DNA from: Cyanidioschyzon merolae
Lineage: Eukaryota
Strand: one strand, 5' to 3'
Length of the DNA: 64,000 nucleotides
Assembly: GCA_000091205.1 (NCBI GenBank)
Contig: AP006501.2
The position numbers were made by a program, and so were the translations under genes. The number at the start of each line of letters is the position of its first letter. Position 1 is the stretch's first letter. Below are positions 6,451 through 62,379 of the stretch, piece by piece. Under the pieces are notes generated by a model that worked only from the letters and a program-made list of their open reading frames with translations, ran no database searches and was not told the DNA's origin.

Positions 6451-6548
6451 ACAATGAGTGCGCTCACCGTTTTGTTGTAATACCGATAGATGAGTTCCGA
6501 ACGTCATACATACACCGTGAACTGGGACGTACACTTCACAGGGTCGAG

Positions 6549-6926
6549 ATGGAGCAGTACCAGCAAAGCCCTGGAGATATACAAAAACACAGAGCGCTGA
6601 CGGAAGAGCAAATGGAACGGAGGGCGAAATTTCGTGGACTAGTCGCACTGGTGAGTGTACCCAACGGCAAGAAACGTATAGAGTTTCTGAACCATGACTT
6701 TGACACAGCAATCAATGTAAGGCGATGTGCGGTGCTGGAGAACAGACCCCCCGCCCCACCCCCCGAGTTGACTAGAGCCAACTTCGTCGGGCGACCTCTC
6801 AAGGTCCCGTTGAACGGAAAGAAGCTGAAACCAATAGTAGCTGGCCGGTCGAGAAAAGCCTGGGAAGCGACTGCGCGTCTGCGTAGAGACATCCACGCTG
6901 TCGGCGTGATGTATGCGCGTTGGTAA
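6549..6926 (+). pseudogene. TnpB/Fanzor-like C-terminal fragment, copy C. It retains the RuvC-III motif and has no CxxC.
   Basis: …FRGLVALVSVPNGKKRIEFLNHDFDTAINVRRCAVLENRP…ELTRANFVG… aligns residue by residue with copy A (…LRGRLTLVSTSSGASKKRMEFVNRDFKAAINVSRYAALKSRPEELARLNFMG…). Confidence 0.35.
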
Positions 6927-9214: not shown

Positions 9215-9732
9215 CGCCAGCACGGGGTCACTCGTCACAAGCGAGCACTCGAACGTGTGTAAGGCGGCCGCACTGACCACATGTGCACGAGTTCCGGAAA
9301 AACCGCAACTATCAGATACACGGTACTTGAGGTTTGCAATTTCGCCTGTCTTCGCGGTGGACTCTGCGACACTGGAAACGATTTCCAAGCAAAACCGCAA
9401 ATATTAGGTCTGCTGTTGTGCTTGTGCATGGCAGCTTTAACACCTGTTTTCGTGGTGAATCTTGAGATATTGGATAACCGCAATCGCAGCGCTGGAGTGC
9501 ACGCTGGCGCTCCTGATTTCGGTGAGCTTCGCGCGAGGCCCCGAATGACTCTCTGGTAACCGTGATGCTAGCCCCGAGAGCTCCGAGCTGCGAGGCGCCC
9601 GGGGTCCTCGGCTTTTCTGGACGGTATGATGCTAGAGTCTCTCGACACTAGATGCGTCGCGGAGCCGGAATGCGCTCCAGCGTCTGGGGTGCTGCGTGCA
9701 CGCCCCGAGACGCGACACCTGCAATGCATACG

Positions 9733-17939: not shown

Positions 17940-19200
17940 TGGTGTGCGCGAAACCCCACGTAACATGAACGTGGAACGCTGAACCGCTTGCAACGTTGCT
18001 GGCATTCGATATTTTCCGAACTTTTCCGAAGATATGCAACCTGAAGATTCGAATTGCATGAATGAAGGCTGGCGGATCCGTATGTAGTTTCAGGATTGTG
18101 GGTCATGTCCAGGGAGTGGCTCCCGCGATTTCTCGGCACTGGAATTCGATACGTCACCGTCATCAAGATGATTTTTCGTGGCGCGCTCGAACAAGGGCTC
18201 CTAAAAGAATCGCTATCAGCATCGAGGGCACGCGCAAAAGCCTCTGCTCGTCCATTTCCGTACTCGTAATAGGTTCAAATCACGCATTCTTCAAGGTTTC
18301 GATCTTTGTGTTGCAGGGCGCCTGTTGAGTGCAGCGATTCGCACCACTCAATTGACGACGATGAAGAACATTCCACGTGATCCATTGACGATGTTTTCAT
18401 GCGCTCACGCCGAAACCTCGCTGACCGCCTCTCGGCATATCATCGATTCTGTTCGCTAGATCAACCATCATCTGTTCCGTGTCATCGATGAAATGGCACT
18501 GGGCTGCAGCATGATGCTTTTTGCGGGAGTTGCTCCCAGACGTTCAAATCTCTTCTATTCCTTTTACACGGAAATGGGTCTTGGACTAGGAGTTCAGTTA
18601 CGGTAGCGATCGTTGCCACTGCAGTGTGCGTCATCATGTCGCATAAAGGGAACGGAGACAATTGAAGACTTCTCGGTGCGTTCTCTAATCAGGCGTTCCC
18701 CTCCGGTACCCGTATCACCATGGAAAACATCGCGTTCAAGATCTCCTCTGTCGAATGGAATAGCATGTGCTTGCATATGCAGTCGATAGCGTACTCACCG
18801 AGGGTATCGCGCAGACGCAGCCCGTGATCGATGTTACGTCAACGGGCGCGAACATGGAGCAGAGCACCCTGATGAGCTGCATGGAACCCCAGGGGGCACG
18901 TATCAAACGATGAAGCAAGCCTTCTCGTTCCAAGGGGCGGCTATCGGGGAAGCATTTATAATGGATATACGGAAACACCTGATCATTGCCAAGTGTCGTC
19001 CCGGTGAAGCGCGCAGAAAGGCGGTATGTAAAAAATGAGAATAGAAAGCGATGCGCAGATCGCAGCGTTCGCTTTTAGCATAAAATACGTCGACAACTGC
19101 CGAGAGAAACAATGTAGAGACTTTCAGGCTGCCATCAGCACACTTCGACTGCTGACAATCAAGCTGAAGGGAAAGGAAAACCAAGCAGTCGCAGAAACGG
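17940..19200 (+). repeat. Dispersed approximately 1.3-kb repeat, copy R1.
   Basis: Aligns over about 1.26 kb with 20940-22200 at a constant offset of about 3.0 kb and about 70-75% identity. Conserved blocks include CGAT(A/T)TTTTCCGAACTTTT, ATGGAAAACATCGCGTTC…CGAATGGAA(T/C)AGC(A/G)TGTGC and ATGAAGCAAGCCTTCTCG. It is also homologous to the IR arms (33879-35252 and 36858-38234) and to 60870-61420. Confidence 0.6.
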
Positions 19201-19713: not shown

Positions 19714-20688
19714 TCATCGAGCAAGCATTTTCTCCAGTCTTCGTTGCCACTCCACAACCATATCAAAGGAAAGCGCGCCTCCGAAGATATCCAAAGCGGA
19801 ACCGATTGTGACATCTACTCGGCCGCAACCAACAAGTCGAACGCGTTCCAGGTCGGCTAGGTCTCGAACGCCACCCGCATACGTTGCCGGTACTGGGGAC
19901 CCGACAGCCAGCTCATGCACCAATGCTTCGTCGATACCGATTTGCTTGCCTTCAACGTCCACGGCATGTACTAAAAACTCTGCACAGTATTCGCTGAGCC
20001 ATTCCAGGAGCTGGCCACTTATTCGCAAGTCAGTTCGTCTTGTCCATCGATCCGTGTAAACGTAGTATGCGCTTTCGCTCCCCGAAATATGACTTCGGCA
20101 GCTGAGATCAAGAACCAGACGCTCTCTGCCAATACGGTGGGCTAGGCGAAGCAGTCGGGACTCATCCAGCCGACCATCCCGAAACACGTACGAAGTGACG
20201 ATCACATGGCTGGCACCGGCCTCCAAAAACCGTTCTGCATTCTCCTCCGTAATGCCACCTCCGAGCTGCATTCCCTGCGGATATGCGGCAAGAGCAGCAA
20301 GCGCAGCACGTTCCGATGCTTCGCGATCCCCTCCGAGGAGGATGATATGGCCTCCAGGCAGCGCATGCTCGCGGTACAGCGAGGCGTAGTAGGCCGCGGG
20401 TTGCGTCGCTTCGAAGTTCACCACTGACGCCCGGCTCCCGTCTGCTGATAGTGATGACCCGACTATCTGTTTAACCTTTCCGTTATGAATGTCAATGCAG
20501 GGTCGAAACCGTGTCACGCGTTCAGCAGTCGCACGAGCGGTCGGCGTCCCGGCTGTGAGCCTGGGTCGCGCTCGAACACGGGCAACTGGCGGGTGCCTGG
20601 CGCCCTCCGGGGATATTCCGGTGATTCGTCTCGTCAACGGCGGAGCGTGAATCCCCGAACTGGTGCTTGGAAAACAGAAGAGGAGCAT
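19714..20688 (-). CDS. hisA: ProFAR isomerase of histidine biosynthesis (HisA/HIS6-type), with an N-terminal extension.
   Basis: 324-aa ORF. FRPCIDIHNGKVKQIVGSSL… matches the eukaryotic HIS6/HisA N-terminal signature. It has a (beta/alpha)8-type glycine-rich C-terminal half (…VTIGSALDIFGG…). An approximately 60-aa S/T/R-rich presequence is present. Confidence 0.8.
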   Translation of the reverse strand: MLLFCFPSTSSGIHAPPLTRRITGISPEGARHPPVARVRARPRLTAGTPTARATAERVTRFRPCIDIHNGKVKQIVGSSLSADGSRASVVNFEATQPAAYYASLYREHALPGGHIILLGGDREASERAALAALAAYPQGMQLGGGITEENAERFLEAGASHVIVTSYVFRDGRLDESRLLRLAHRIGRERLVLDLSCRSHISGSESAYYVYTDRWTRRTDLRISGQLLEWLSEYCAEFLVHAVDVEGKQIGIDEALVHELAVGSPVPATYAGGVRDLADLERVRLVGCGRVDVTIGSALDIFGGALSFDMVVEWQRRLEKMLAR

Positions 20689-20939: not shown

Positions 20940-22200
20940 ACGGCAACACCCGTGTCGGATGAAAGTGGAACACTGGGCTGCTCGCATTGGTGCAGCTTTA
21001 CGATTTTTTCCGAACTTTTTTAGATGTAAAACCGCGGCTTTCGGAAAGAAGGAATATCGGCTTACGGGTTTATACGTAGTTTTAGGATTTTTGGGTGTCC
21101 TTATGGAATGGCTTCTTCGAACTTTGTCCGCTACAGCTCGTTTCGTCACCGGAATCCAGATGGGATTCTAGATCAGAATCTGGATGATTCGCAAAGTCGC
21201 CGAACATGAGTTCGAGAATCAGTCGACATCAGTTCCCGATTCATTCGAGCATGCCTCCAGTCTTCTACATTCCTTTCATGTTTCATGTTTAAACCAGATT
21301 TTCTTCAACTCTCCGATCTATGCCTTGCAAGGTGTTTCGTGGGCGCAGCAATTCGCACTTCTGGATTGACGACAAGAAAAACTCGCGGCCGTCGCTTGAC
21401 GACAAGTTCCAGAGCTCATGTCGAAAGCTCACCCAAGTCGTCACGTTTCGTAAACGATTCTGCTCGAAAGACGAGTCCTCCTCTATTTGTGGCCCTCTAC
21501 AAAACGACATTCGACTCCAGCACGACATCGCTTTTAGGGCTTGCTCCTAGAGGCTCCTATTTCCTCTGTTTGCGTCGAAACCGGATTCGGAGTCAGACTT
21601 GAGCCATCGCACCGATTGCTTCTAGTGGAGCGTTTGTCACCGCTGTGCACGAAGAGCGTGAAGACGAATCTTAATTTCTCGACACGTTCTCTGGTCTGGC
21701 TTTTCCTTCCGGTGCTCGTTTCATCATGGAAAACATCGCGTTCCACAAATCCTCTACCGAATGGAACAGCGTGTGCGTGTGTGTGCACCCGGCATCCTTC
21801 TCACAGAGGGATCCTCCAGAAAACACCTGTTACCATAGATTACGTCACCTGGCACGTAACTGGAGCAGGGCATCGAGGGGAGCCCCCTGTACCTGTCAAG
21901 GGATGTATCGAGCCATGAAGCAAGCCTTCTCGCATCAAATGGCGCTGGCCGAACGAACGAATGAGCGTGGTGAGCTTGTAGGAACACTTGACTTGGTCCA
22001 AGTGTCACCGATGCGACGGGCACATTGAGACTGTACGCATCGAAGAGGAAAATTGCAACTGACGCGTAGATCGCGACGACTTCCTGTGCACGAAATGCGT
22101 TGACAATAGCTGGAAACTGCGAATTCCGGACTTGAACGCTGACATCAACATCCTTCGACTTGTGAGAATGGAGCTGGAGAGACTAGCACATTTAAAGCCG
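20940..22200 (+). repeat. Dispersed approximately 1.3-kb repeat, copy R2.
   Basis: See R1. It lies in the same orientation, 3.0 kb downstream, and the two copies flank the HisA gene. Confidence 0.6.
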
Positions 22201-22323
22201 GGTATGAGAGAAAGCTAAAGTACGAGATTACAGAAAAAGCCTACCAATTCTGGTATCGTCGGCAATTGAGCAAGAAAGCGCTCCCAGGAGCCGAAACATC
22301 CCTGTTCGGCGCTGTGGACCTTC

Positions 22324-23989: not shown

Positions 23990-24520
23990 GGGGGAATGGA
24001 TGTGAAAAACGCCGCCCTCGGGCGCGCGAGGCGTGCGCCATGGAACGCACCGGCATCGCGACTGGCGGGTTTACACGTTCACCTGAATTGTGTTCCACAT
24101 CCAGATGCGTGCCATCCACTGCGTGTTCGCAGTGTACAGCAGATGCGTTCGAAGTGCGTTCATTTGAACAGATAAAAATCCAAGGGAAAGATATGGACGT
24201 GCAAGTCGAGGATCCTGAAGGGATTTCAAAGCTACCTGCTTGATAAAACCCTCATCTTGCTGATTATCAAAAGGCGAAGAAGTAGAAAAAGGAGGTAGGT
24301 GAGATAACGTGCGTGCTCGACGGGATGATGTCGAGACTGTAGTGGAACATGGGGCACCAGTCTGAAGACTCCTAGCGTTGACGAGTTCATCTAGCATCAA
24401 TATATGCAAGGAGTTCGTGAACTGCGACCCCATCACCACCATCAATATCAGATGACGTGTGGCGCTGAAGACGTGAGACCCCAGGAGCTGACGCGATCCA
24501 GTTTTATGGGGCAGCCTCTG
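23990..24520 (+). pseudogene. TnpB/Fanzor-like C-terminal fragment, copy D, with in-frame stops.
   Basis: ORF 24040..24243 (…TADAFEVRSFEQIKIQGKDMDVQVEDPEG…) and the frame at 24411 (EFVNCDPITTINIR*) align to copy A at about 85% nucleotide identity. Confidence 0.4.
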
Positions 24521-25813
24521 ATGCTCGGAATGTGCCTGGATAATAACTGAAGCCAATAGCAGCGGGTGCGCCGGTCAGAAAGGTTCGGGGGCGGGCAGGC
24601 GGCGCCTGCACGTCGGTATTCGTTTACCCCATATGATCGCGAAAAGGTTTCGCTCCACTGAGCGTATCTTGAATCTGTGATTCCACAAAATGCAACCACG
24701 ATTCCATTTCAAGTATTCGCAAAAGCTCATCGCCAATATGCAGCGACACCACCACTGGAGGACGGTGGCGTTTAAGCGCTTGGAGCAGTGTTGCAGATGC
24801 ATCTTATGCACGCGCTATTGGTACGTTCGTGTGCGTCACCCGAGCCAGGAAACAAAATGCTTTGGTAAAGCGTTCTTGATTCCGTGCAGCGTCCACACAG
24901 GCGTTATACGTGGTATGACACACCCTCACGTCAGGCTCGGTACCCGGCGGAGCACGCGAACGAACCGCTGTCTCTGAAGAGAAGTTTGTGGCAATTAGAG
25001 AAACCTGTCGATGGAGTGCGGCGTGATGGGTGCTCCCGCGACGGCGAATGCCACCTGCTCTGCCGGAGTTTTTCCAAGATGAAAGATCTTCCGATAGAGA
25101 AAATTCCTTCCACGTTGGATATCGCAAATTGCGGGCAATCGAGCAATTGCCCGCACGGAGATAGCGAGGCTGTCCCGTCTCGTAGCTAGGTGCGCGGTAT
25201 GCTCGGCACGCAGGGCACGGGGTTTACCACACCGAACCTGTACTTGCAACGAGAAGACCGGTCTGGGGCTTGTGGAACGTAGAAGCAACTGGAAGAGGAC
25301 CGCGGTCTCTTTCCTGGTAAACGGCGACATTCGTGCATCCGGATGTTCTGGTTTGAATCGTCGATCCCTTATCATCCAAAATACCGCCACTCGTTGTGCT
25401 CGTTGCAGTGCACGCGAACGTGCACACCATGGCTCGTGCTTCGCTACCAACCGCTGCGATGACTCGAGCGACGCATCGTGTGCTTCGACCCGAACGCCGA
25501 ACGCGATGCAGCCTCGCAATCACCAATAGTTGATGCACACATTGTTCTCGGCATGCGGCTCCGAGTACAGGATGGCGTCGTTTGCGCAGGAATGGTAGTC
25601 AAAATCCAAATGGAAACCTGTTTGCGGCACGAGTGCCAGCGAAACGCGAACGCGTACCGCGAGGATTATACAAGAGCATCACCCTTCGAGCGCGTCTCTT
25701 CTCCCCAGTGGTATCGGTGCTCTTACTAGGTAGCCTGCGTCACGCGTCATGCAAATCGCATATCTTCTCGAGATCACAGAAGCCGCCCTAATCGACTTTG
25801 GCGCTGGGCATTA

Positions 25814-31276: not shown

Positions 31277-33475
31277 CTACCGTGATTGCCTCTGGACAAG
31301 GCGTAGTCCGGTGAATCTGGGCAGAAAGAGAAAGCCCCTGCGGTGACGGGCCTCGTTGTCTGCAGCTAGCTCCGTGACATTCGGTTGATGCAACCGATCC
31401 AACGCACCAGCGCTTGTCGCCGCGTCTCCCGCCAGAGCCGGTGCTATCCGCTGATCAGGCCTGGAGGTAGCAGGGTCTGCAGCAGGCTCCTGCACGCTCG
31501 ACCGCTCCGGTGCCTGGCGTGCGGTTTTCAGGCTCGACAGGTACGCATCGGTCGTGAAATGCGGGTTCGATGGTATCAGAAACGGATCTGAACGTGAGCT
31601 TTTCTGAAAGCGTTGCAGGAACGAGGTACGCCGCAGCCTCGATAACGCCAGTGCATTCCGCCGCACACTGCGTCGATATTTCAGTGCAGTTTCGCGAGCG
31701 CGGAGAATTTCGTCCAGTTTCTCGTCGCTGAACACTCTTGCTGCGAAGCGAGCGCCATCACCAGCCGGGCGTTGATACGGTGCTACCAGCATCTCGTATG
31801 CAAGCCCAAACCCGTAACGCGTAGCCTCGAAAATCACCTCAGGTCTGGTTTCCAGCTGGCTTATTTCGGGATCTCCACGCGGTGGAGCGATCGCCAGAAT
31901 CGAGGCCTGCTCCGGCAGCGCCGAGCACCAGCGTTCTTTCAAGATGCTCCGAACATGGACGTGGCGAGCGCTTTTCCTGTCTTCTAAGATGCGAATATCT
32001 TCCAAATACTGTTTGAAATGGCCTCCCCGAACGATATAGTCACGGACGTGCGGAAATGCCTCCAATTCGGGTGCAGCTATCATACGTTCGTAGAAGCCGG
32101 CGATCCGCGGAACACGCGTACCCACCGGGCGCGTTCGCAATACCAATAAATGCGTACATCCATCCGCAAGAGCGCTTCGAAAGGGGATTGCTTCGAAAAG
32201 AATCCCGTCCGCGTAGATATCGTCACCAATGGGAACGAGCGGCCCCGCGATGCCTGGAACCCGCGCGCTCGCCCTGAGGCACTCGCGCAGCTCCGCGTAG
32301 GTACGGAACCCGTCGAACGCTACACTACGTGCGTGCGTGAGGCTGCTCGCCACCGGTCGGAGCGGCTGCACCGCATTGTTTTGGGCGAACTTGTTCCAGT
32401 CTAATGGTTTGATATGAACCATTACTTCATCGAGAAGAAAGTCGAGATCGAGCACCGGTCGCGTCCGGCTTGACGAACGTAACGGTTGCCAGAGCGCTCG
32501 CTTATTGATGAAACGATCGTTCGCAATATCCTCAAAGTAGACAGACGGTCCATAACCTGGTAGCTGCCGCGCAACGACGTAGGCACCGCAGATAGCCCCG
32601 GCGGATGAGCCGAAGATCACATCAAAAGCGTCCGCGAACCCGAGGTATCCCAACGCAGCACACATCCCAGCGGCAATACTCCCGCGCATACCACCACCTT
32701 CGATGACAAGTCCAATGCGGTAGGGATCGTGGCGTTGTCCGGGTCGCGAGCCGTGTGCTCGTCGTTGGTGCAGGGCCATTAACACCGGATCATCTGCGTA
32801 GCTTTGCCAAGGATGATGCGGTTTGTTGGGGGCTTTTTCCCGCTGCAGCAAGAGACGCGGAATGAGACTCAGACTGGCGATGCGTGCTCGTCGCAAGAGC
32901 GCTGTACGCAGGGGCGCTCCTGGTGCTGCTGGTGCTGCATCACTTGATGTGGCTGTCTTGTTAGCGCGAGTCGCCGTCTTTGGTGGTGCCGGGTTCGGCT
33001 GCTCCAAAGCCGCTTCCGGTTTCAGCGCGAAAACGAGAGCGCCTCGAGCAAGAAACTGCCGCTGGATAGAGAACCTCGTAAGCAGCCTGGACTGTTCACG
33101 TGCTCGGTTGCAGGCGTTGCTCTTGGGCCAGCAGCTGTGCCTCGTCTTTCCAAAAGCAAGGCTAGTACCCTGGAACTGAAAGCTCATTCGTGACAGCGGC
33201 CGTTGCGTGGCTCCAGTAGACGCTTCCGGTTCGTCCAAAGTGACTCGTGCTGCAAGGATATGAGCGCTCATTCGTGGCGGCAGTGATAGCGTGCTTGCCG
33301 AAGATGCATGTTTCTTGTACAAAACGGCTCGTGCTTCTAGGTGGCGCTCGAGCGACTGCCTGCTGCCGTCAACTGCACGCTCTCTCGCCATGCGCAGTCC
33401 ATCTACGACCAGTGTCAAACTTGAGCCTGTATGCTTGTTGCTGGATGCTCGCGCTGCTATCCGCACAACGAGCAC
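31277..33475 (-). CDS. Patatin-like phospholipase domain protein.
   Basis: 732-aa ORF. The oxyanion motif GGGMRG (LVIEGGGMRGSIAAGM) and the GxSxG nucleophile elbow (FGSSAGAICGAY) lie in a patatin fold context. The N- and C-terminal regions are low-complexity. Confidence 0.8.
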   Translation of the reverse strand: MLVVRIAARASSNKHTGSSLTLVVDGLRMARERAVDGSRQSLERHLEARAVLYKKHASSASTLSLPPRMSAHILAARVTLDEPEASTGATQRPLSRMSFQFQGTSLAFGKTRHSCWPKSNACNRAREQSRLLTRFSIQRQFLARGALVFALKPEAALEQPNPAPPKTATRANKTATSSDAAPAAPGAPLRTALLRRARIASLSLIPRLLLQREKAPNKPHHPWQSYADDPVLMALHQRRAHGSRPGQRHDPYRIGLVIEGGGMRGSIAAGMCAALGYLGFADAFDVIFGSSAGAICGAYVVARQLPGYGPSVYFEDIANDRFINKRALWQPLRSSSRTRPVLDLDFLLDEVMVHIKPLDWNKFAQNNAVQPLRPVASSLTHARSVAFDGFRTYAELRECLRASARVPGIAGPLVPIGDDIYADGILFEAIPFRSALADGCTHLLVLRTRPVGTRVPRIAGFYERMIAAPELEAFPHVRDYIVRGGHFKQYLEDIRILEDRKSARHVHVRSILKERWCSALPEQASILAIAPPRGDPEISQLETRPEVIFEATRYGFGLAYEMLVAPYQRPAGDGARFAARVFSDEKLDEILRARETALKYRRSVRRNALALSRLRRTSFLQRFQKSSRSDPFLIPSNPHFTTDAYLSSLKTARQAPERSSVQEPAADPATSRPDQRIAPALAGDAATSAGALDRLHQPNVTELAADNEARHRRGFLFLPRFTGLRLVQRQSR

Positions 33476-33878
33476 CCTCCTGCGGATTGATATGTCTTTG
33501 TTCTACAAAGGTTTTCCGGACACTGCCTCACGCTGGACCCGTTTCTGTCGAGAGCCGTGCCTGCTGCTGCCAGCGCACTTGGCTTCGGATCTGGACGTGT
33601 TGGCGCAACCGCATCCGGCACCTGCTCTCCGTTGGCAGGAAACGGCGGGCTCGAATGCTCGCCTCCATCGCTGTGGTTGTGGAATCGACACGTCTCACGG
33701 GATATGCGGATGCGCGAATGCTACCGATATTTAGCCAAAAGAAGTAGATCCTTGGCAGTTGCTCCTGTACCCAACGAGGCCCAGCATGGTCGTCACGTCG
33801 CGCTCGGCGGTTCGATCCGGCGACAAGCCTGGAGCAACGCTTGGCGTGGGCGCTTGTCGCGCCGCTACATCTATGACT

Positions 33879-35252
33879 GATGAAAAGCGAACACTCAAGT
33901 GCGTATTCTGTTCCCGTCTTTGAGGTTTGTACGAAGTTGCTTTTTAGGTGTACAGCCTCGGCGTTCAAAGTGCAGCAACAAAGGGTCACGGATGTATGTA
34001 TCGTTTTCGAGGATGCTTGGTTGTGGTTTCGGAGCGGCGCGTTAGGCGCCTTGCACGCGGAATTCGCGACGTCATCGTAATCAAGACGATTCACAAAGCC
34101 CTGGAACAGCGCTTCGTAAAATAACCGGTCTTGTTATCTAGTTCATACGTACGAGACCGGGCTCTTCGCCCTTGCTTCCGTGTAACACGCCCAATTCACG
34201 CATGCTTCGAGTTTTTGGTCTATCGGTTTCGATGCCATATGTTGATGCAGCAACTCGTGCCGCTGCGCGGACGACGAAAAGCACCCGGCAACATGTCTCG
34301 ACGACCTCTGCACAAGCGCAAGCCGGACACACACTGAACGTGTCACGCCAAACAATCCGTGCTGTTCGAAAGCCAAATCCTCTGATCTGAGTGGCGATCA
34401 ACGGAACGGCATGCCACAGCGGTAGAATGATACCTGGCACGGAACGCGACTGCAGAAGCACCCGTCGCCTATGTTTGCGTAGGAGCGGGTGCTGGACCCG
34501 GACTGGACTGATCACAGCGATCGACTCGGGTGGAGCGTCGACGGATCGACGTCTCTCGAATTGGTTACAAGCCTGGATTCTGCAGTCTGTAGGTGTGTCA
34601 GCATGGACGCCCTCGTACTCCACAACCTGTTTATCGAATGGAAGAGCGTGCGCTTGCGTGTGCAGGTTACGGAGCACTCGCCGAGGCGATCGCCCGGACG
34701 TGGCAAGTGGTGTTACGGTACGGCACCAGGCGCGTAAACGGGGGATAGCACCGAGGGCAGCTTTCTGTACCAGCCACGAGCACGTACCGATCGACGAGGC
34801 AAGCGTTCACGCACCGCACAGAGCAGCCCTCGGAGGACAAGGGCGACAAGCGCGAGAAGAAGGAGGAAGATTCTTGGATGTTCGGTAACGTCCGACCGCA
34901 ATCGCGTGTCACCGTTGCAAAGCGCGCACCGAGCTAGCGTACAACGAAGCTGAACACGGCAAGAGAAGCGTCGATCGCCAACTCCGTCTGGGTGTCAAAT
35001 GCGTCGACAGCAGCCGGAACCCGCGAAACCGGAACCAGAACGCTACCACCAACATCCTTCGAGTGCTCACAAGGGAGCCATTTTGGAATGAAAGACCTGC
35101 GCACCTGACTCTGGAGACAGACGAGCGGTACCGGAAGCAGTCCCCGACAGCCATTGCCGCAGACTGTATCGATGCCATCGGGACGAGACCCAGTCCTGAG
35201 CGGATCCGCTTCTGGAAGTGAATCTGTCCAATTGTGCTCTAAATTGGATGTA
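33879..35252. repeat. Left arm of the large inverted repeat (1374 bp). It belongs to the approximately 1.3-kb R family.
   Basis: The reverse complement matches 36858..38234 at about 98-99% identity. Duplicated ORFs with near-identical proteins confirm this (34138..34677(-) vs 37436..37975(+); 33880..34080(+) vs 38033..38503(-); 35067..35402(-) vs 36804..37046(+)). Boundaries were checked at nucleotide level: the outer junctions are …ctgatgaaaagcgaac / …gttcgcttttcatcgaac, and the inner junctions are …ctctaaattgg|atg / ttataccc|aatttagag…. Confidence 0.85.
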
Positions 35253-35682
35253 GGGCATTGCCGCAACACGCAACGAATACGCCAGACCCAAGACTAGAAC
35301 GGAATCGGCCCAGCTCGTCGATTCCCATACGCGCAACTGCTTATCGAATGCATATTCTTTACAAGTGTCTCGGCAGACTGCCGCATACACACAGACTTGC
35401 ATGCACTAAGTAGAGCTACGGCTCGCATGCATCTCCTCCGCACAATTCTTTAAATCTACTGGGTAACCGTTCTCTATCGTAAAAATCAAGCACCCATAGA
35501 TTCATACGAGCCGCATCCCTACCTTTTGCGGGTAATGGCGCACTGCACTGCACTCAACTGCACTGCCCGCTCGCGACTCGTAACCGCCAAAGCATGTTGT
35601 GATGCTCCAGGTGCCGAATGCCGTCCAGGTTCATGCAACGGTGCCCGCGTCCAATATCTTGGATGACATCGCCCACAGAGGC

Positions 35683-36705
35683 CTAGTCCGGCGCACTGAG
35701 CTTCTTGCGATCTTGCGGTCTTGCTACGAGAAAGACCTTGCGTTGCGCCACATTGAAGCCGACGATAGCGCCGCAGCGTTTGCAGCGCCGCTCGTCACGC
35801 TTTCTATCCGAAGCGCTCGAGAAAAGACAGGTCACATCGTTTCCGCAATTAGGACAGGGTCCCCGGACTACCTCCGGAGAGCCCAAATCCAAATAGCTCA
35901 GCATTCGTGGCGTCAGGTAGTTGCTGAACCACGCAGTTACGACAGCGATGACCACGAAGAGCACAGACGCTCGAACGGCGACCTGATCATCGAACGTTAG
36001 CTGAATATGGCCGAGACAGATGAGATCAAGGAGCGCAAAACCCAGGATACTCGATAGGCAAAGCAGCACGGCGGGCGCGTAAAGAAGCAGCAGCTTGAAC
36101 CGATCCTCCACTGCGTCTCCGAAAAGCAGATACATAAGTCGTTTGTCCATCGACGAATCAGACTTGAGGATGCTTTGCATGTCGAGGGTGCTGGTTCGAC
36201 TCGCTCCCAGCTTGGCCTTGAGTCCGTCGAGCTCTTCGGGACTTAGACGCAGCTCGTTCAGGAGCCGTCTGTCCATGTCGCGTTGCTGCGCAGCTTGAAT
36301 CCAAACCTTCTCCAAGTCATTTAACCGAAGAGAACTAGAACCTAAATGTTCCAACTCGTCACGGAGAGTCTTGAATTCGCCGTCGGTGAGAACCGGGTTG
36401 CCTTCATAGTATGAGCGCAGCGCTTCAATAAACAGGTTCTCTAGGGCGCCTCTGTACTCACCGTCGTTATTGCCGTCGATGCGCCGAATCCATAAATGGT
36501 CGTCGTTTTCGAACGGTTCTCGTGATATGCTCATATGGTACCGTCGTGGACGCGAGAGCAGTCGCACGCTGGCACCACGGCAAACGGGAAACCGCGCAAT
36601 ACCAACGGAACACGCAAACGGGGCCGCGCACCGTCGAAAAGGCACACCTATGGTGCTTGTCAGCCAACACAGCGGTGCGTTGGAGCGGGACCCGGGCCTC
36701 CGCAT
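35683..36705 (-). CDS. PGRL1: PGR5-like protein 1 (PGRL1) homolog. It is the sole gene in the spacer of the inverted repeat.
   Basis: 340-aa ORF. FIEALRSYYEGNPVLTDGEFKTLRDELEHLGSS resembles plant PGRL1 FLQALQSFYYDGKAIMSNEEFDNLKEELMWEGSS. Two predicted TM helices follow. The C-terminal paired Cys motifs RGPCPNCGNDVTCLF…RCKRCGAIVGFN resemble PGRL1 KGPCPNCGTENTSFF…KCTNCGTAMVYD. An N-terminal presequence is present. Confidence 0.7.
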   Translation of the reverse strand: MRRPGSRSNAPLCWLTSTIGVPFRRCAAPFACSVGIARFPVCRGASVRLLSRPRRYHMSISREPFENDDHLWIRRIDGNNDGEYRGALENLFIEALRSYYEGNPVLTDGEFKTLRDELEHLGSSSLRLNDLEKVWIQAAQQRDMDRRLLNELRLSPEELDGLKAKLGASRTSTLDMQSILKSDSSMDKRLMYLLFGDAVEDRFKLLLLYAPAVLLCLSSILGFALLDLICLGHIQLTFDDQVAVRASVLFVVIAVVTAWFSNYLTPRMLSYLDLGSPEVVRGPCPNCGNDVTCLFSSASDRKRDERRCKRCGAIVGFNVAQRKVFLVARPQDRKKLSAPD

Positions 36706-36857
36706 GGCAGCGAGAACAACAACTGAAACGTTTCTGGCCTAAGTACAGCAAAACGCGGTGCACGTTGCCCAGCTTTGCGGAGAAGATCTCCTCTTGCAAA
36801 TGAATGAAAGGTGGTCGACGACCTGCCTACGGTGGCTGGCTGAGACTCCCGCGCACA

Positions 36858-38234
36858 GATTATACCCAATTTAGAGCACAATTGGACAGATTCACTTCCA
36901 GAAGCGGATCCGCTCAGGACTGGGTCTCGTCCCGATGGCATCGATACAGTCTGCGGCAATGGCTGTCGGGGACTGCTTCCGGTACCGCTCGTCTGTCTCC
37001 AGAGTCAGGTGCGCTGGTCTTTCATTCCAAAATGGCTCCCTTGTGAGCACTCGAAGGATGTTGGTGGTAGCGTTCTGGTTCCCATTTCGCGGGTTCCGGC
37101 TGCTGTCGACGCATTTGACACCCAGACGGAGTTGGCGATCGACGCTTCTCTTGCCGTGTTCAGCTTCGTTGTACGCTAGCTCGGTGCGCGCTTTGCAACG
37201 GTGACACGCGATTGCGGTCGGACGTTACCGAGTATCCAAGAATCTTCCTCCTTCTTCTCGCGCTTGTCGCCCTTGTCCTCCGAGGGCTGCTCTGTGCGGT
37301 GCGTGAACGCTTGCCTCGTCGATCGGTACGTGCTCGTGGCTGGTACAGAAAGCTGCCCTCGATGCTATCCCCCGTTTACGCGCCTGGTGCCGTACCGTAA
37401 CACCACTTGCCACGTCCGGGCGATCGCCTCGGCGAGTGCTCCGTAACCTGCACACGCAAGCGCACGCTCTTCCATTCGATAAACAGGTTGTGGAGTACGA
37501 GGGCGTCCATGCTGACACAACTACAGACAGCAGAATCCAGGCTTGTAACCAATTCGAGAGACGTCGATCCGTCGACGCTCCACCCGAGTCGATCGCTGTG
37601 ATCAGTCCAGTCCGGGTCCAGCACCCGCTCCTACGCAAACATAGGCGACGGGTGCTTCTGCAGTCGCGTTCCGTGCCAGGTATCATTCTACCGCTGTAGC
37701 ATGCCGTTCCGTTGATCGCCACTCAGATCAGAGGATTTGGCTTTCGAACAGCACGGATTGTTTGGCGTGACACGTTCAGTGTGTGTCCGGCTTGCGCTTG
37801 TGCAGAGGTCGTCGAGACATGTTGCCGGGTGCTTTTCGTCGTCCGCGCAGCGGCACGAGTTGCTGCATCAACATATGGCATCGAAACCGATAGACCAAAA
37901 ACTCGAAGCATGCGTGAATTGGGCGTGTTACACGGAAGCAAGGGCGAAGAGCCCGGTCTCGTACGTATGAACTAGATAACAAGACCGGTTATTTTACGAA
38001 GCGCTGTTCCAGGGCTTTGTGAATCGTCTTGATTACGATGACGTCGCGAATTCCGCGTGCAAGGCGCCTAACGCGCCGCTCCGAAACCACAACCAAGCAT
38101 CCTCGAACACGATACATACATCCGTGACCCTTTGTTGCTGCACTTTGAACGCCGAGGCTGTACACCTAAAAAGCAGCTTCGTACAAACCTCAAAGACGGG
38201 AACAGAATACGCACTTGAGTGTTCGCTTTTCATC
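36858..38234. repeat. Right arm of the large inverted repeat (1377 bp), in the orientation opposite to the left arm.
   Basis: See the left arm. Confidence 0.85.
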
Positions 38235-38811
38235 GAACATTCATCTGCGCTCGCTTCGACTCTGGAACGCAGGACAGTCGCGTCAATGAAACAGTACTGT
38301 TCGTGGATTTGTTCAGGATGCGTTCCAAGACATCGAGCGGAGCACTGCAGGAGTTTGACGCGAATCGGCCGGTAGGCTTGGCACCTGCAAGGTCGCAGGA
38401 TAGATCTCGCGTTGGTTCTTAACCAAAATACTGCACTGGGGTCCCGAGTGCGCGGGAGCTTACCTTTGCGGACGACTGTCCCCAACCTGGTCATTGATCG
38501 CATTTGCGTGTCTACGCGGGCGTCTGTTCACATTCATGAGACTCACACCTTCAAATAAAGCAAATCGGAGGCCGAGTAGCCTATACGGTAGCGGCAGGCA
38601 GGCCAAATGCTGATTTGGTGAAGCTCAGCCTCAGAGTGCCCGCGCGACTGAGGCCTGTATTCGCGATCGAGCATGCGACTCCGACATCCTGGCTAGCAAA
38701 TGAGTGTCGGATAATCATGGAGGTCGGTCAAGCGAACACATTGCATTGGGCATCATCGGGGCTTATCAGATCATCATCGGGTCGCTGACGAGGGGCCCAG
38801 TTCGCCCAGCG

Positions 38812-39789
38812 CTAGGGGAGCGATGGCAGCACACCCCAAGAGTCGTCCGCCAACGCGCCGACTCCTGGGCTACGCTCCTCACGAACCGCTCGCAGTGCTG
38901 TGGGCTCTATTGATTCTGTGCACTTTCGTCGCTCGCGAAAGAATCGCCGAAGTAATGATGCGGATTCGTTCGCCAACACCCCGGGAATGATCTCCGAGAA
39001 ACGATGGAACGGATGCGGTGGTGCTACCGTCAATAGTGGAACATACGATTCAATAGCACCTAACCGCAGACCTGGTGCTCCATAGACCAGTCGCGTTACT
39101 CGCGCCAATTGCATGGCGCTGAGACACATAGCGCACGGCTCTAGAGTACAGTAGAGCGTCACATGATACGGAACGGGATGATCTCGACTGCCAGCGCGGT
39201 TCAGTCGCCATGATCGGAGCCGTGCCGATGCCGCCCGTAAACATTCGATCTCAGCGTGTGCTGTGGCATCACAGCACTCCTCAATACGATTCCGACCGCG
39301 TGCCAGAATCACGTCCGGTGCGTCAGTTTCTGGTCCATTTCGCACAACCAAAAGAGCACCAACTGGCACCTCATTGTTCGTGTATGCCTCCTCGGCGAGC
39401 GCAAGAGCCATACGCATGTAGTGCTCGTGCGGTTCAGCTGCAACATTTCTACGAACGGACCCTGCACTCGGCGCGGGTATGCGATACTCGAGGCTGGTGG
39501 GCGTGCTCCGAGCAAGAGCCGCACGCTTGCAGGTAAGCCGGCAGTGCGCAGCCTCCACGCGTTCTCCGACTGCGTGCAGATGACCCTCTGTCTCTCGCGG
39601 CAAGTTGAGACCATCTTTTCGCTCGTTAAATTGAGGATCAGAAATGCATAAGCTAGCGCTGGGGCGGCGATTGATCGACGCCCTCTTTGGAGTCTGCCTT
39701 GTGCTGCTGCTGCTGCTCGTGCGCCGTCTACAAGCAAAGCTCAGCGTGCTCACGATAGAGAACGAGCACCTGTGCACTTTCGGTAACAT
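38812..39789 (-). CDS. tadA: tRNA-specific adenosine deaminase (TadA/ADAT2-like CMP/dCMP-type zinc deaminase) with an approximately 150-aa N-terminal extension.
   Basis: 325-aa ORF. The deaminase core MRMALALAEEAYTNNEVPVGALLV…HAEIECLRAA…TLYCTLEPCAMCLSAM carries the H(A/C)E and PCxxC zinc-binding motifs. Confidence 0.8.
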   Translation of the reverse strand: MLPKVHRCSFSIVSTLSFACRRRTSSSSSTRQTPKRASINRRPSASLCISDPQFNERKDGLNLPRETEGHLHAVGERVEAAHCRLTCKRAALARSTPTSLEYRIPAPSAGSVRRNVAAEPHEHYMRMALALAEEAYTNNEVPVGALLVVRNGPETDAPDVILARGRNRIEECCDATAHAEIECLRAASARLRSWRLNRAGSRDHPVPYHVTLYCTLEPCAMCLSAMQLARVTRLVYGAPGLRLGAIESYVPLLTVAPPHPFHRFSEIIPGVLANESASLLRRFFRERRKCTESIEPTALRAVREERSPGVGALADDSWGVLPSLP

Positions 39790-49864: not shown

Positions 49865-50430
49865 CAAGGAGGAGCTGCAGCTGCGACTGTGTCTCTCAGC
49901 ATCTAGTTCTGTCTCATAGTATTTCACATTGTCTCATCGTACACCATACGCGCATGCGCGATTGCTATCGATTGCAAGCAAAGCGGCGAGTACGCCTCGC
50001 GCTCACGAAAGCGCTGCAATCGATGGAGCTCGGAACATGATTCTCGTTGGGAATGTTGACCGATAAATCGTTTGCACGGGCGCCGCAACATCGATATATG
50101 ATAAAAAGGTGGCGAGTTGACGCAACGCATCTGCCGATTCTTGCTTATCCGTGTGCCGATGAATACAGCGGACGGCTCGACGAGCCCCTGACACCAGAAG
50201 TCTATCGCAGACTAAAGGCGTCCGCCGCACCCAGCTCTGCTGAACGGAAACTCATGAACAGCTTGACTGTCTCTGCAACCAACGCGAAAGCCGACTCTGC
50301 CGAGTCAACTGCTCTGGCAGGTCATTGAAGAATAATACCCGCATGCAGCTGTGCGCTCACAAGAATCGTAGCGCCCAACGTTGAAACCATCCAACGCACG
50401 CGACGCTGTACGGGATATTGGCGTAGCGCG

Positions 50431-50672
50431 CGCATCCCAAGTGACATGTGCACTGGCGAAACGCGTGCACTAGCCATGTGTCCCTTTGGACAGCGCGTTA
50501 CGTCGCAGGCTGATGGCGATCTGCAAGGCACAGACGCCACATGACACCAGCGCATCCCAAGTGACATGTGCACTGGCGAAACGCGTGCACTAGCCATGTG
50601 TCCCTTTGGACAGCGCGTTACGTCGCAGGTTGATGACGATCTGCAAGGCACAGACGCCACCTGACACCAGCG
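50431..50672. repeat. Tandem duplication of a 120-bp unit (2 copies, about 97% identical).
   Basis: 50431-50550 is repeated at 50551-50670 with three or four mismatches. ORF 50322..50660(-) is an artefact of the duplication. Confidence 0.9.
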
Positions 50673-51655
50673 CTCGCGACAGCTGCACGCTTCTGCGCAT
50701 GCCCGGCGACTGCGCTGCTCAACTTGACCTGCTTCGCAGTTGCGCGGATGGGGCGAGCAGACGGCTATCGCGGCGGCGGTTCACGCTTATATGCATGCAA
50801 GCTCGTATGCAATCCGTATCCGAACCATGAGTCGCTCACCAGTGAAGCGCTGAGACGTCAGTCCCAGAGACCATCCAGCGTCATTGGATCTCCGCAATCG
50901 CCTTAGGCTGCTTTCCAAACGTAGGGATCGACGCGAGGTTCTTGATCTGCGCCAAAACGTTGAGAGTGAGCTTTCACCGTTGCAGCGCACGGTGACTACG
51001 TGAGCTGGCGAGTCTGCCCTACACTGGTCAGCAGCGAACGCAGACAATATGCGTACCTAGGACACTGCTCGTGAAATTGGACGATTCAGAGTCTGCGGCA
51101 TCTCTTGAAACTGGCTTTGACGTTCTACGGTTGATGCAAGAGACGCTGGCGCCCTGTATGTTGCGCGTATGTGCCATGTCGCGTGCACTCGCCGCAGGCT
51201 TCTCCAGTGCTGCACCGTGAATACTAGCAGGTTATTCTGGAAAGCCATACGCATATTGCAGTCATCGTTGCGGCATCGGGCACCCTTAACGTACATATGA
51301 TTCCAGCGTAGTTCACGACGAGTGCATATCGAGCTGGATGCTAGGCTGCGGTACGCGCAGGAGAGCGCAAACGAGGCTATCAGGGGCGCTTCCAGCGCAG
51401 ATGCAGCGTATTGGGATTAAAATGTACAAGTATGGACATAGCACCCAACCGTTTGAATTTTCAAAGCGCTTCATCACAGCGGCGCGCGCGCCTTGCAAGC
51501 GGCGCTCCTGTGCGATACGGAACAGCTCCGCAGGCTTTACAGCGTCTGCGACACCGTGAAACCAAAATACCCACAAATTCGTCACTTTTTTCTACCTCTG
51601 ATTTAATTATCAGGCGTGTGCACCACAGAAACTCGGACGCACGTACGGGAGGCCG

Positions 51656-60625: not shown

Positions 60626-60869
60626 GAAGGTAGAGCACGGAGCAGGCGTTTGGTTTCTGTATGTCGACGTGTTTTCCGGGCTTCTTGTACCTGTCCAGTC
60701 CTGGGAATGGAAATGCAATCGTAAGTTCATTCGAATTGATTCATAGGTCGAGGATGCTTGGTGGTGTTTTTGGAGCGAGTCCTTGGACTGCATGCAGCTG
60801 GAATTCGTTGCGTCACCAGGATCAGGATGATTCGCAATAGAAGAGACAAAGAGCTAGGAAACTGACCGA

Positions 60870-61420
60870 TATCATGATCCAGTGTTTGCGAAGACGTCTC
60901 GGCTCTTCCTGTTTCCTTACGTAGCGTATGTTGAAAAATCACGCATTGTGCACGTTTTTGATCGGTCTGTTTCAAGGCTAGTCATTGCCACAGCACTGCG
61001 CGTCGCTGGGCTGACGAGGAAACGAAAACTCGACTTGGTGCACTGGCGAGTGCTTCACAAGCTCATGGCAAAATTTCACTGAACGTGTCATGTCGAATAA
61101 TTATCGGATTCGTTCGAAGGACAAAAGCTCATTTTTTTGTGACTATTGACGAAACTGGATTCGACATCCGTACGCTACCGCTTACGAGATATGCAGGCAG
61201 TGGTTCTCGTCTCTTCTAATTGCATGGAAATTGGTCTTGGATTAGCACGTGGGTCATTGCGTCGATTGGCTCGAGTGGGGCGTGCGTTACCGCGTTCCAC
61301 GATGAGCAGGTAGACGGATCGAACTTGCTAGACTTGATCTCCAGACCTGACTTTTCTTCCCACACTAGTTTCAACACAGACAGCACCGCTTTCCACGAAT
61401 TCTAACTCATATGGGACATT
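60870..61420 (+). repeat. Partial copy R5 of the approximately 1.3-kb R family (about 550 bp, truncated).
   Basis: Blocks AAATCACGCATT…, …GACGA(G/C)(G/A)AA(A/C)…AAAACTCG…, …AGCTCATG… and …CTCTTCTA(A)TT…GGAAAT(T)GGTCTTGGA(T/C)TAG are co-linear with R1 18260-18590 and R2 21270-21600. Confidence 0.4.
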
Positions 61421-62379
61421 GTGCGCTCGCATATCCAGCTTACAAAGTACTCAGCATCGGATTACCCAAAAGGAGCTCGTCATTGGAGGGCACGGCACCG
61501 GGTACGGAAACGGAGGCGGACATCGAATGGAGTCCTCTGCACCAGACATAAGCATGCACAGAACGATGAAGCATCCCGTCGCGTGTCAACGAGCAGACCT
61601 CACCGGAGCAGGTGCCGTGGACATAATGGAATACCTGACCAAGGTCGAGTGTCGACGGTTCTCCAGCGCACCAAAGTTGTATACAAAGATGATGATGAGA
61701 CTAGCAAGCGGTGCGTAGCTTGCAGCTTTTGCGAGTGCATGAAATGCATGCACAACAGTCCGAAGGACGGGAAAAGAGGACAAAAATACCGAAACGAGTT
61801 ACTAACAACCAACGTGCTACCAGTTTCTTTCCTCCTCTTCGGTGAGCGTTACAAGAGGAAAAAGTTTTCCCAATTCTCAAAAGGTTACCATCTAGGCGGA
61901 AGGTCTCGCGAGCCGGACGAGCCTGCCGGGCATACGCTCTGTGCGCCTCTGCAGCGACCGATGCTGTAGTGAGATCGCCGCTGCCCTTCGGCAACGCAAC
62001 TCAGTCTGGGACTCGCAGCGAGTATGCTGCATTTCAGCGTCGCGCAGGTCGCAGAGGACCCCTAGCATATCGCATCGCGCTGTCGCAGGCAATACGTCTT
62101 TCTGCGCATCTTGCAGGCTCCCTGAATGACAATAAATCCCGATTCCATGTCGTGCAGAACACGCTTCGAGCCGGCGCCCTCAGCGGTATGACAACGCCGT
62201 TCTGTCTCCGTGATGCATCGGCATCAGCGGTGTAAGCGTTAAGGCGCGTGCTCGAAGTGGCACTCGGCGCACGATAGAACGTACGAAACGAACAATATAC
62301 CCAAAACGAAGTACAAGTAATGGAACTAGAAGGTAGGTGCTTCATCATGGGCGATTTCCCGAAAGCCGATACCTATCCC

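Follow-up and report, generated by a model that had tools for sequence, protein, structure and literature searches.

Why does a single photosynthetic gene of a compact algal genome lie between two nearly identical, oppositely oriented copies of a repeat, and does the gene turn around between them? The question arises at a nuclear locus on chromosome 19 of Cyanidioschyzon merolae 10D, where two inverted arms enclose a PGRL1-like gene. C. merolae, whose genome is finished, serves as the 'simplest' photosynthetic eukaryote. The locus is located in a 64,000-nucleotide stretch of DNA (hereafter, the window), which was analyzed as a whole and compared with environmental C. merolae contigs and with three outgroup loci.

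Architecture of the palindrome and its repeat family

The palindrome consists of two arms of 1374 nt apiece and a unique spacer (Table 1). A repeat search and a base-by-base comparison revealed 13 mismatches and no indels between the arms. The resulting identity of 99.05% bears out the near-perfect inverted repeat (98-99%) of a preliminary description of the window. Its left-arm coordinates were also accurate, and its right-arm start (36858) and spacer length (1605 bp) deviate from ours by an unimportant 3 nt. The arm boundaries are sharp, with random identity right outside both ends, and two of the 13 mismatches sit 3-5 nt from the inner edge and go along with the spacer ends. Self-BLAST of the window detected no second repeat of more than 90% identity except a 124-bp tandem duplication, and thus the arm pair is exceptional in the window.

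Table 1. Positions of the palindrome, its neighboring genes and related repeat copies in the window
Feature	Position	Strand	Remark
Patatin-like phospholipase gene, left flank, synteny anchor	31277..33475	-	Pfam and conserved synteny
Left arm of inverted repeat	33879..35252	+	Non-coding copy of dispersed family E1; 99.05% identical to right arm
Unique spacer, 1608 bp	35253..36860	.	Segment inverted between window and relatives
PGRL1-like gene, 340 aa	35683..36705	-	Protein identical to C. merolae 10D BAM82852.1
Right arm of inverted repeat	36861..38234	-	Reverse complement of left arm
Cytidine/tRNA-adenosine-type deaminase gene, right flank, synteny anchor	38812..39789	-	Pfam and conserved synteny
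Diverged E1 copy	17968..19185	+	Intergenic, between gyrA-like and HisA-like genes; nhmmer
Diverged E1 copy	20959..22201	+	Intergenic, between HisA-like and DUF1838/cyt-b5 genes; nhmmer
Diverged E1 copy	60680..61822	+	Adjoins second repeat family (61784-64000); nhmmer

The possibility that the inverted repeat itself is an assembly collapse or chimera, which the preliminary description had raised, can practically be dismissed, given that the arm-spacer junctions on both sides recur in more than 25 independent assemblies of different samples. Arm sequence is present on both sides of the spacer in metagenome contigs L010, L011, L015, L017, L018, L025, L031, L032 and L034, and several environmental contigs pair a full arm at one end of the spacer with a partial arm at the opposite end. 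Six short-read contigs (L001-L005 and L033) cover the spacer only and end 0-51 nt into both arms.

The spacer contains a single plausible gene, as had been claimed. A distance of 155 nt separates its 5' end from the right arm, and 430 nt separate its 3' end from the left arm. The encoded protein resembles plant PGRL1 in the conserved N-terminal region, in hydrophobic segments and in the C-terminal CxxC...CxxC pair. In a BLASTP comparison with Arabidopsis PGRL1A, it shares 29% identity over 248 aa (E 2e-22), with both CxxC motifs included, and the four cysteines (C284, C287, C308 and C311) are invariant across eight red-algal homologues. The database name of the protein is only 'hypothetical protein, conserved'. 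Single-sequence and profile searches for named relatives gave only unnamed red-algal proteins, and further searches gave no Pfam family beyond a sub-threshold zinc ribbon and no PDB relative. The literature searched contained no functional data on the C. merolae protein that would bear on a role in cyclic electron flow around PSI, and the papers that name both PGRL1 and Cyanidioschyzon do not treat the gene.

The arms are non-coding copies of a dispersed, diverged intergenic repeat family, E1. Homology to E1 spans approximately 33879-35104 of the left arm, and the last ~150 nt of the arm are duplicated yet lie outside the family. Using nhmmer, we identified five E1 copies in the window, including both arms. 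The three non-arm copies (E 1e-70 to 1e-82) are 54-59% identical across the whole alignment. BLAST picks up only patches of these relatives (70-180 nt at 67-73% identity), and the figure of ~70% given in the preliminary description is right in substance. The longest left-arm reading frame (222 codons) is interrupted by a stop codon in the right arm, and the family displays stops in all frames and no 3-periodicity. Six-frame stop-to-stop segments, stop counts, codon-position periodicity across the family and Pfam matches with E up to 1 revealed no coding content in the arms. RNA genes were matched neither across the whole window at Rfam gathering thresholds, nor at 33400-38800 by Rfam with E up to 1, nor by ARAGORN. 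The arm ends carry no target-site duplication (TSD), terminal inverted repeat (TIR) or poly-A tail, and no transposase was found by Pfam over 31-40 kb or in the arm frames.

E1 was not detected in the syntenic loci of the three outgroups by blastn with a word size of 7, tblastx or nhmmer with the family HMM, all of which matched only the PGRL1 coding region, and no inverted repeat was found there. The outgroup intergenic spaces, which measure 739 bp between the PGRL1 and deaminase genes in C. yangmingshanensis and less than 100 bp in the Cyanidium-like locus, have no room for the arms. E1 occupies several intergenic regions whose outgroup counterparts are short and free of repeats. The intergenic DNA of C. 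merolae has been expanded by repeats, which account for 12.7% in this species versus 0.59% in Cyanidiococcus (Cho 2023, PMC9812998). As the PGRL1 locus shows, lineage-specific repeat expansion made substrates for ectopic recombination even in C. merolae. Among the repeats described in this genome is a 'novel interspersed repetitive element' (Nozaki 2007, PMC1955436). It is present in 253 copies, measures ~3.2 kb and includes a truncated ORF with a weak relationship to WSSV WSV486. The arm family, compared with this element by length and ORF signal, is ~1.2 kb long and exhibits no such signal. At 60.6-64.0 kb, E1 adjoins a second repeat family that bears protein-like ORFs.

Concerted arms and spacer orientation

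The arms could be similar because their duplication is very recent or because they are homogenized by gene conversion, the two options offered by the preliminary description. The two 10D arms differ from each other at 13 sites and from every environmental arm at 17-27 sites. The 10D arms have a common allele at 14 sites where the environmental majority on both sides carries another, and the environmental arms show no side-specificity at any of the 11 internal positions that distinguish the two 10D arms. Likewise, the patatin-side arm of L010 and the deaminase-side arm of L015 exhibit only seven differences. As judged from these alignments, the arms have evolved in concert, with paralogous arms closer than orthologous ones, and the 14 shared strain-specific sites favor the gene conversion option. 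A literature search for inversions, inverted repeats or gene conversion in the nuclear genome of C. merolae gave nothing specific to the PGRL1 locus.

The gene order patatin-PGRL1-deaminase is conserved in all three outgroups (L006, L008 and L036), and the orientation of the central gene differs. PGRL1 is located on the same strand as both neighbors in the window and 10D, and on the strand opposite to both in the outgroups. Orientation was counted in the 20 environmental C. merolae contigs that cross one whole arm into the unique flank. The outgroup orientation was observed in 17 of them (L010-L021, L023, L024, L026, L031 and L034) and the window orientation in three (L009, L022 and L027). The spacer is colinear in all loci at 98-99.7% but adopts either orientation relative to the conserved flanks, and the switch in colinearity falls across the arm in every contig. 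The comparison with related strains and species, which the preliminary description had proposed, thus encounters both orientations, and the opposite orientation in the outgroups and most environmental contigs supports its view that the geometry permits inversion.

Alleles linked to the flank (33887 and 35107) and alleles linked to the spacer end (35206/7 and 35248/50) occupy opposite ends of the arm. In L009 and L022, which come from different sample series, an arm that is of the patatin-side type over more than 1.2 kb leads into the 3' end of PGRL1, and the alleles switch in one common 99-nt interval (35107-35206). Such an arm SNP pattern is expected under both true recombinants and assembler mis-joins. 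All three window-type contigs share their spacer haplotype with outgroup-type contigs, and matching contigs of both types can come from the same JGI sample series, where short-read mis-joins are possible. L027 contains only 118 nt of flank with three mismatches, the first 145 nt of L009 match nothing, and signs of messy assembly are seen in L009, L020, L021, L027 and L035. An inverted repeat of 99% identity can cause mis-joins in short-read assembly, and L009, L022 and L027 may thus be chimeras. Every contig with the 10D spacer haplotype stops at the arms, which leaves the reference assembly as the only source of the 10D orientation, and the reciprocal junction, from the deaminase flank through the arm to the PGRL1 5' end, was not seen outside the window. 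With the window orientation represented by the reference assembly and the three short-read contigs, we infer that 10D and its relatives are set apart by at least one inversion whose breakpoints lie within the arms.

Proposed origin of the palindrome and meaning of a probable inversion

What sequence of events could generate this locus? We consider it probable that an inverted duplication of E1, concerted evolution of the arms and a flip of the spacer by non-allelic homologous recombination (NAHR) together account for the palindrome and have left a polymorphism that is likely neutral. One E1 copy and ~150 nt of adjoining DNA would have been duplicated locally and inverted after the Cyanidiococcus split and before the sampled C. 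merolae strains diverged. A local origin is suggested by the extra-family sequence in the arms and by a limited scan of JGI metagenome contigs that gave no further near-identical copies: a 32-mer from the center of the arm matched two contigs, both from this locus and too few to represent all four junction types. The arms would then have been kept alike by intrachromosomal gene conversion and crossing-over between them, and at least one arm-arm crossover would have flipped the spacer. Such a flip would explain why PGRL1 shares the strand of both neighbors in 10D and lies on the opposite strand in the outgroups and most wild contigs. The process, repeat-mediated inversion with arm-to-arm gene conversion, is a known mechanism.

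The same locus could instead be a static inverted duplication, in which the 10D orientation is an assembly error, the window-type contigs are mis-joins, all C. merolae retain the ancestral orientation and conversion alone acts on the arms. This explanation draws on the missing independent contig support for the window orientation on the 10D haplotype, on the prevalence of the other orientation in the environmental contigs and all outgroups, and on the messy assemblies noted above. However, the widest gap between arm-discriminating sites is 410 nt, and a typical Sanger read is longer. The arms should therefore be phaseable in 10D, where mate pairs would also tie the flank to the spacer. The junction shared by L009 and L022, with the same switch interval in separate series, also argues against a static duplication. 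Given that the 10D genome was completed to 100% from Sanger shotgun data (PMC1955436), we regard a static duplication as unlikely. A different origin of the arms, in which an active E1 element inserted recently and independently on each side of PGRL1 (or made a local hop) in place of a segmental inverted duplication, would be in keeping with the outer edge of the repeat, which coincides with the start of E1 homology, and with the colonization by E1 of several intergenic regions that are short in the outgroups. However, the arms lack TSDs, TIRs, a poly-A tail and coding capacity, share sequence past the family homology at their inner end and, by their central 32-mer, are represented in the JGI contigs at this locus only. 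Moreover, the other copies in the window are so diverged (54-59% identical) that the family looks long dead, and the insertion origin is accordingly a doubtful one. A TIR transposon, foldback or composite element was rejected as a description of the locus on the basis of the absent TSDs and transposase, the same neighbors of PGRL1 in three outgroups and the restriction of the arm 32-mer to this locus.

Does the inversion regulate PGRL1? The preliminary description had envisaged a promoter or orientation switch, and a programmed or high-frequency switch governing PGRL1 expression would fit the presence of both orientations among close relatives, the occurrence of one spacer haplotype in both orientations within one set of sample series and the position of the PGRL1 ATG, which is so near the arm that the promoter may lie in it. 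The symmetry of the locus argues against this idea. The arms are mirror images, and the sequence around PGRL1, for ~1.5 kb upstream and ~1.8 kb downstream, is therefore the same in either orientation, leaving an identical local cis context in both states. In addition, the whole gene is located inside the invertible segment, in contrast to a promoter facing an outside gene, and the orientation frequencies are heavily skewed (17:3). No conserved ORF or recombinase was identified in the arms or spacer; a search for an invertase or integrase in or beside the element returned Pfam matches in 31-40 kb only to patatin, deaminase and the sub-threshold zinc ribbon of PGRL1. Such a switch is highly improbable, and its site-specific-recombinase form was rejected, given the absence of a recombinase gene and a promoter-gene pairing that inversion would leave alike. 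Judging from the symmetry of the arms, a neutral structural polymorphism is the most likely reading of the inversion. It is very unlikely that the segment flips appreciably often in clonal C. merolae populations and that its orientation matters. If it did, the effect could arise through read-through or interference from the deaminase or patatin gene past the arms, or through inward arm promoters that generate sense and antisense PGRL1 RNA. The outcome would be cell-to-cell heterogeneity in cyclic electron flow capacity; in algae, bet-hedging on a photosynthetic regulator by a nuclear switch that needs no recombinase would be novel. The hairpin or cruciform envisaged for the palindrome should rarely extrude with a 1.6-kb spacer.

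Comparison with known inverted repeats and practical consequences

NAHR inversions between inverted low-copy repeats provide a close parallel. At human Xq28, the FLNA-EMD segment inverts between ~11-kb inverted repeats, and recurrent 'toggling' inversions are flanked by inverted segmental duplications. The PGRL1 locus shares with them near-identical homogenized inverted repeats, a gene-bearing spacer found in both orientations among close relatives, breakpoints within the repeats and the absence of a dedicated recombinase. However, it is ~10-1000 times smaller (1.4-kb arms and a 1.6-kb one-gene spacer), resides in a 16.5-Mb, repeat-poor, normally haploid red alga, and has arms that derive from a lineage-specific non-coding dispersed repeat and not from gene-bearing duplications. 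The human and primate Y palindromes P1-P8, with arms of 9 kb to 1.45 Mb, exhibit the same arm-spacer-arm layout, an arm identity far above that expected from the age of the duplication, concerted evolution and spacer inversions. Their arms carry genes thought to be protected by conversion, whereas the PGRL1 palindrome has non-coding arms and its gene in the spacer.

Recombination between inverted repeats also flips a single-copy segment, with local junction sequences unaltered, in the plastid genome and the yeast 2-micron plasmid. These are multicopy circles with both isomers at ~1:1 in each cell, and the recombinase FLP serves the 2-micron plasmid; in contrast, the PGRL1 locus is single, nuclear and devoid of a recombinase. 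Bacterial invertible switches (fimS, hin/H-segment and shufflons) resemble the locus in that inverted repeats delimit a DNA segment whose orientation changes. They employ 9-30 bp sites and a dedicated site-specific recombinase to reorient a promoter or partial gene, and short sites, recombinase and reoriented promoter are all absent at the PGRL1 locus.

The palindrome by itself adds nothing new on the regulation of cyclic electron flow. On the preferred reading of a repeat-mediated flip, an inversion of one gene would distinguish the reference strain from both wild populations and sister species. Assemblies of short reads break or mis-join at the palindrome, and PGRL1 knock-out or knock-in constructs with 1-2 kb homology arms would include the repeat, making recombination with the wrong arm possible. 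At 4.4 kb, the palindrome is also a compact, PCR-sized natural system for measuring, in a red alga, how fast inverted repeats recombine and undergo gene conversion.

A near-perfect inverted repeat around a PGRL1-like gene

A repeat search across 32-40 kb of the window recovers a single inverted pair, whose arms of 1374 nt each are 99% complementary and lie 1608 nt apart. Compared base by base, the arms differ by 13 mismatches and no indels, and their similarity falls to the random level directly outside both the outer and the inner edges. Together, the two comparisons place the repeat coordinates of the preliminary description within 3 nt. The sole other repeat of comparable identity in a self-BLAST of the whole window is a 124-bp tandem duplication (50430-50673, 97.6% identity).

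Is the inverted repeat an artefact of assembly? Exact-protein look-ups retrieve more than 30 metagenome and SRA contigs from different samples. Six of these (L001-L005 and L033) contain only the spacer and end 0-51 nt into both arms, which is the expected behaviour of a de Bruijn assembler for a spacer flanked by two repeat copies. In other contigs (L010, L011, L015, L017, L018, L025, L031, L032 and L034), a complete or long arm on one side of the spacer is paired with the beginning of the inverted arm at the opposite end. The recurrence of both contig types across different samples demonstrates that the inverted-repeat structure at PGRL1 is real and not an assembly artefact.

Features of the PGRL1 module, its flanks and the E1 repeat family
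Feature	Position	Strand	Remark
Left arm	33879-35252		inverted repeat
Right arm	36861-38234		inverted repeat
PGRL1-like ORF, 340 aa	35683-36705	minus	sole credible gene of the spacer
Patatin-like phospholipase gene	31277-33475	minus	flank of the module
Cytidine/adenosine-type deaminase gene	38812-39789	minus	flank of the module
E1 copy	17968-19185	+	nhmmer
E1 copy	20959-22201	+	nhmmer
E1 copy	60680-61822		nhmmer

The spacer gene, whose ATG lies 155 nt from one arm and whose stop codon lies 430 nt from the other, encodes a protein identical to C. merolae 10D BAM82852.1 / XP_005538888.1, and the database name of BAM82852.1 is 'hypothetical protein, conserved'. Sequence and profile searches retrieved no homologue with a name, a Pfam search no family and a PDB search no solved structure. 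Arabidopsis PGRL1A aligns with the protein over 248 residues at 29% identity (E 2e-22), and the alignment takes in both C-terminal CxxC motifs, whose four cysteines are invariant in eight red-algal homologues. Given this alignment and the invariant cysteines, the gene's initial designation as PGRL1 is accepted in the form 'PGRL1-like'. Environmental loci L034 and L035, from different samples (3300053675 and 3300053660), contain different, overlapping deletions of 16 bp and 11 bp, respectively, in PGRL1. Both deletions cause a frameshift at the same spot (window equivalent 36073-36089) in the first hydrophobic segment, a site flanked by GCTGCTGCTT and GTGCTGCTTT motifs. They could be errors of assembly, products of a slippage hotspot or naturally occurring loss-of-function alleles.

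Orientation of the PGRL1 segment

In the window (orientation A), PGRL1 and both neighbours share a strand, and the 3' end of PGRL1 points toward the patatin gene. Three outgroups, Cyanidiococcus yangmingshanensis (GCA_026122185.1; L036), a relative with 87% protein identity (L006/L007) and a Cyanidium caldarium-like contig (L008), have the same neighbours with PGRL1 on the opposite strand and its 5' end toward the patatin gene (orientation B), and no flanking inverted repeat of the arm kind is found at these three loci. The sister lineage L006 has a short repeat of its own (160-230 nt, 79-85% identity; 7725-7957, 9385-9617 and 13354-13577), whose sequence shows no relationship to the C. merolae arms. 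One copy precedes PGRL1, and inverted copies follow the deaminase gene and lie near the patatin gene.

When all C. merolae-like contigs are mapped onto the unique flank, arm and spacer segments, those that span a full arm and reach unique flank comprise 17 with orientation B and 3 with orientation A. Orientation B is observed as PGRL1 3' end-arm-deaminase flank in 15 contigs (L012-L021, L023, L024, L026, L031 and L034) and as patatin flank-arm-PGRL1 5' end in two contigs of 33 and 41 kb (L010 and L011), and orientation A is observed as PGRL1 3' end-arm-patatin flank (L009, L022 and L027). The 17:3 ratio deviates from the ~1:1 ratio expected if assemblers chose flanks at random (two-sided binomial p ~0.003, with non-independent samples). 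Therefore, B is the true majority arrangement in the sampled environmental populations. B is also ancestral, and arrangement A of the 10D reference, which is based on a finished Sanger assembly, is derived. These comparative data, with A in the window and B in the outgroups and 17 contigs, bear out the early proposal that the PGRL1 segment can invert. A Yellowstone study describes '10D-like' Cyanidioschyzon in its metagenomes (PMC11662350).

The largest spacing between arm-discriminating sites is 410 nt, and thus reads could phase the arms. Colinearity changes inside the arm in all contigs: alleles from the outer end at 33887 inward to 35107 track the flank, and those at 35206/7 and 35248/50 track the spacer end. 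The three environmental A contigs (samples 3300050379, 3300054705 and 3300053663) may be assembly mis-joins, given that their spacer haplotype also occurs in B contigs and that two of them have odd ends. However, L009 and L022 come from different sample series and switch alleles in the same interval (35107-35206), which mildly favours a real recombinant haplotype. In the 13-kb L009 contig, the first 145 nt stand where arm sequence past 91 nt would be expected, and they match nothing in the window or the other loci. This segment is either a chimeric end of the contig or a structural variant at the 5' side of PGRL1.

Origin and concerted evolution of the arms

The arms have no frame open in both, no Pfam match at E up to 1 and no match in Rfam and tRNA searches. 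BLAST matches of the arm elsewhere in the window are limited to 67-73% patches, and nhmmer aligns nearly the full arm to three more intergenic regions (E 1e-70 to 1e-82). These copies share 54-59% pairwise identity, and their substitutions lack codon periodicity, with 5-18 stops in every frame; the arms thus belong to an old, non-coding dispersed family, here termed E1. From the outer repeat edge, E1 homology extends inward until ~150 nt short of the inner edge, and the arm ends show no target-site duplications, terminal inverted repeats or poly-A tail. The E1 family HMM finds no match in the syntenic loci of the three outgroups, where the gene order is identical and the intergenic spaces are much shorter. 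These differences fit the reported intergenic repeat expansion of C. merolae, in which repeats constitute 12.7% of the genome versus 0.59% in Cyanidiococcus (PMC9812998). The diverged E1 copies at 17968-19185 and 20959-22201, both on the plus strand and 59% identical, form direct repeats around a HisA-like gene (19714-20688). Only ~200 bp separates the HisA gene from its DUF1838/cyt-b5 neighbour in the Cyanidium-like L008, and E1 thus appears to have inserted into intergenic DNA in a lineage-specific manner.

Each orientation is found with both arms present, and the duplication is therefore older than the strain divergence. The 10D arms differ from each other at 13 sites, but each is separated from any environmental arm by 17-27 differences, irrespective of the attached flank. 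The two 10D arms have 14 sites with a common allele that departs from the environmental majority on both sides, and the environmental arms show no side-specificity at any of the 11 internal sites that distinguish the 10D arms. The patatin-side arm of L010 and the deaminase-side arm of L015 differ from each other at 7 sites, versus 12-27 sites from most other arms. With a duplication older than the strains, this pattern requires exchange between arms after strain separation, and homogenisation, one of two options offered in the preliminary description, is upheld by this pattern. Over 20 variable sites, spacer-only contigs (L001-L005 and L031-L033; window 35396-36804) are mosaics of 10D-type and environmental-type alleles, which suggests either that haplotypes recombine in nature or that strain mixtures were assembled into chimeras.

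The simplest account involves three steps. An E1 copy with ~150 nt of adjoining DNA would have been duplicated in inverted form beside PGRL1 in the C. merolae lineage, inter-arm gene conversion and crossing-over would hold the arms near-identical, and at least one crossover would have flipped the spacer. Alternatively, a staggered-break inversion possibly made the duplication and orientation A at once, but a later repeat-mediated re-inversion would still be needed to produce B with both arms. The locus, on the three-step account, is a small-scale case of the well-known inverted-repeat-mediated inversion and arm-to-arm conversion.

Consequences of inversion and a second repeat system

Because the arms are mirror images, PGRL1 is surrounded by identical sequence in both states over 1.5 kb upstream and 1.8 kb downstream, and a flip alters only the sequence beyond the arms, namely the 5' region of the patatin gene or the 3' end of the deaminase gene. 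Given this symmetry and a mean intergenic length of 1.9 kb in C. merolae (PMC9812998), no regulatory effect of inversion on PGRL1 is expected. A search of the locus for a recombinase gene found none, and with mirror-image arms the promoter or orientation switch envisaged initially is not supported. Cruciforms should seldom form across a 1.6-kb spacer. The locus matters for C. merolae genomics and PGRL1 gene targeting and provides a compact system for measuring ectopic recombination; its general interest is modest.

A second repeat system of lower GC (0.49-0.53) occurs near both window ends (2033-6905, 24078-24643 and 61784-64000) and directly adjoins an E1 copy at 60.6-64.0 kb. Within it, 4360-5898 matches 62444-63984 at ~75%, 3707-4336 matches 62418-61784 in inverted orientation, and 2033-2611 matches 24643-24078 and 6904-6614. 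Its protein-like ORFs (5471-6247, 258 aa; 62753-63202, 149 aa) have no Pfam match. The system is possibly the 3.2-kb interspersed element with a truncated WSV486-like ORF that was reported in 253 copies in C. merolae (Nozaki 2007; PMC1955436).
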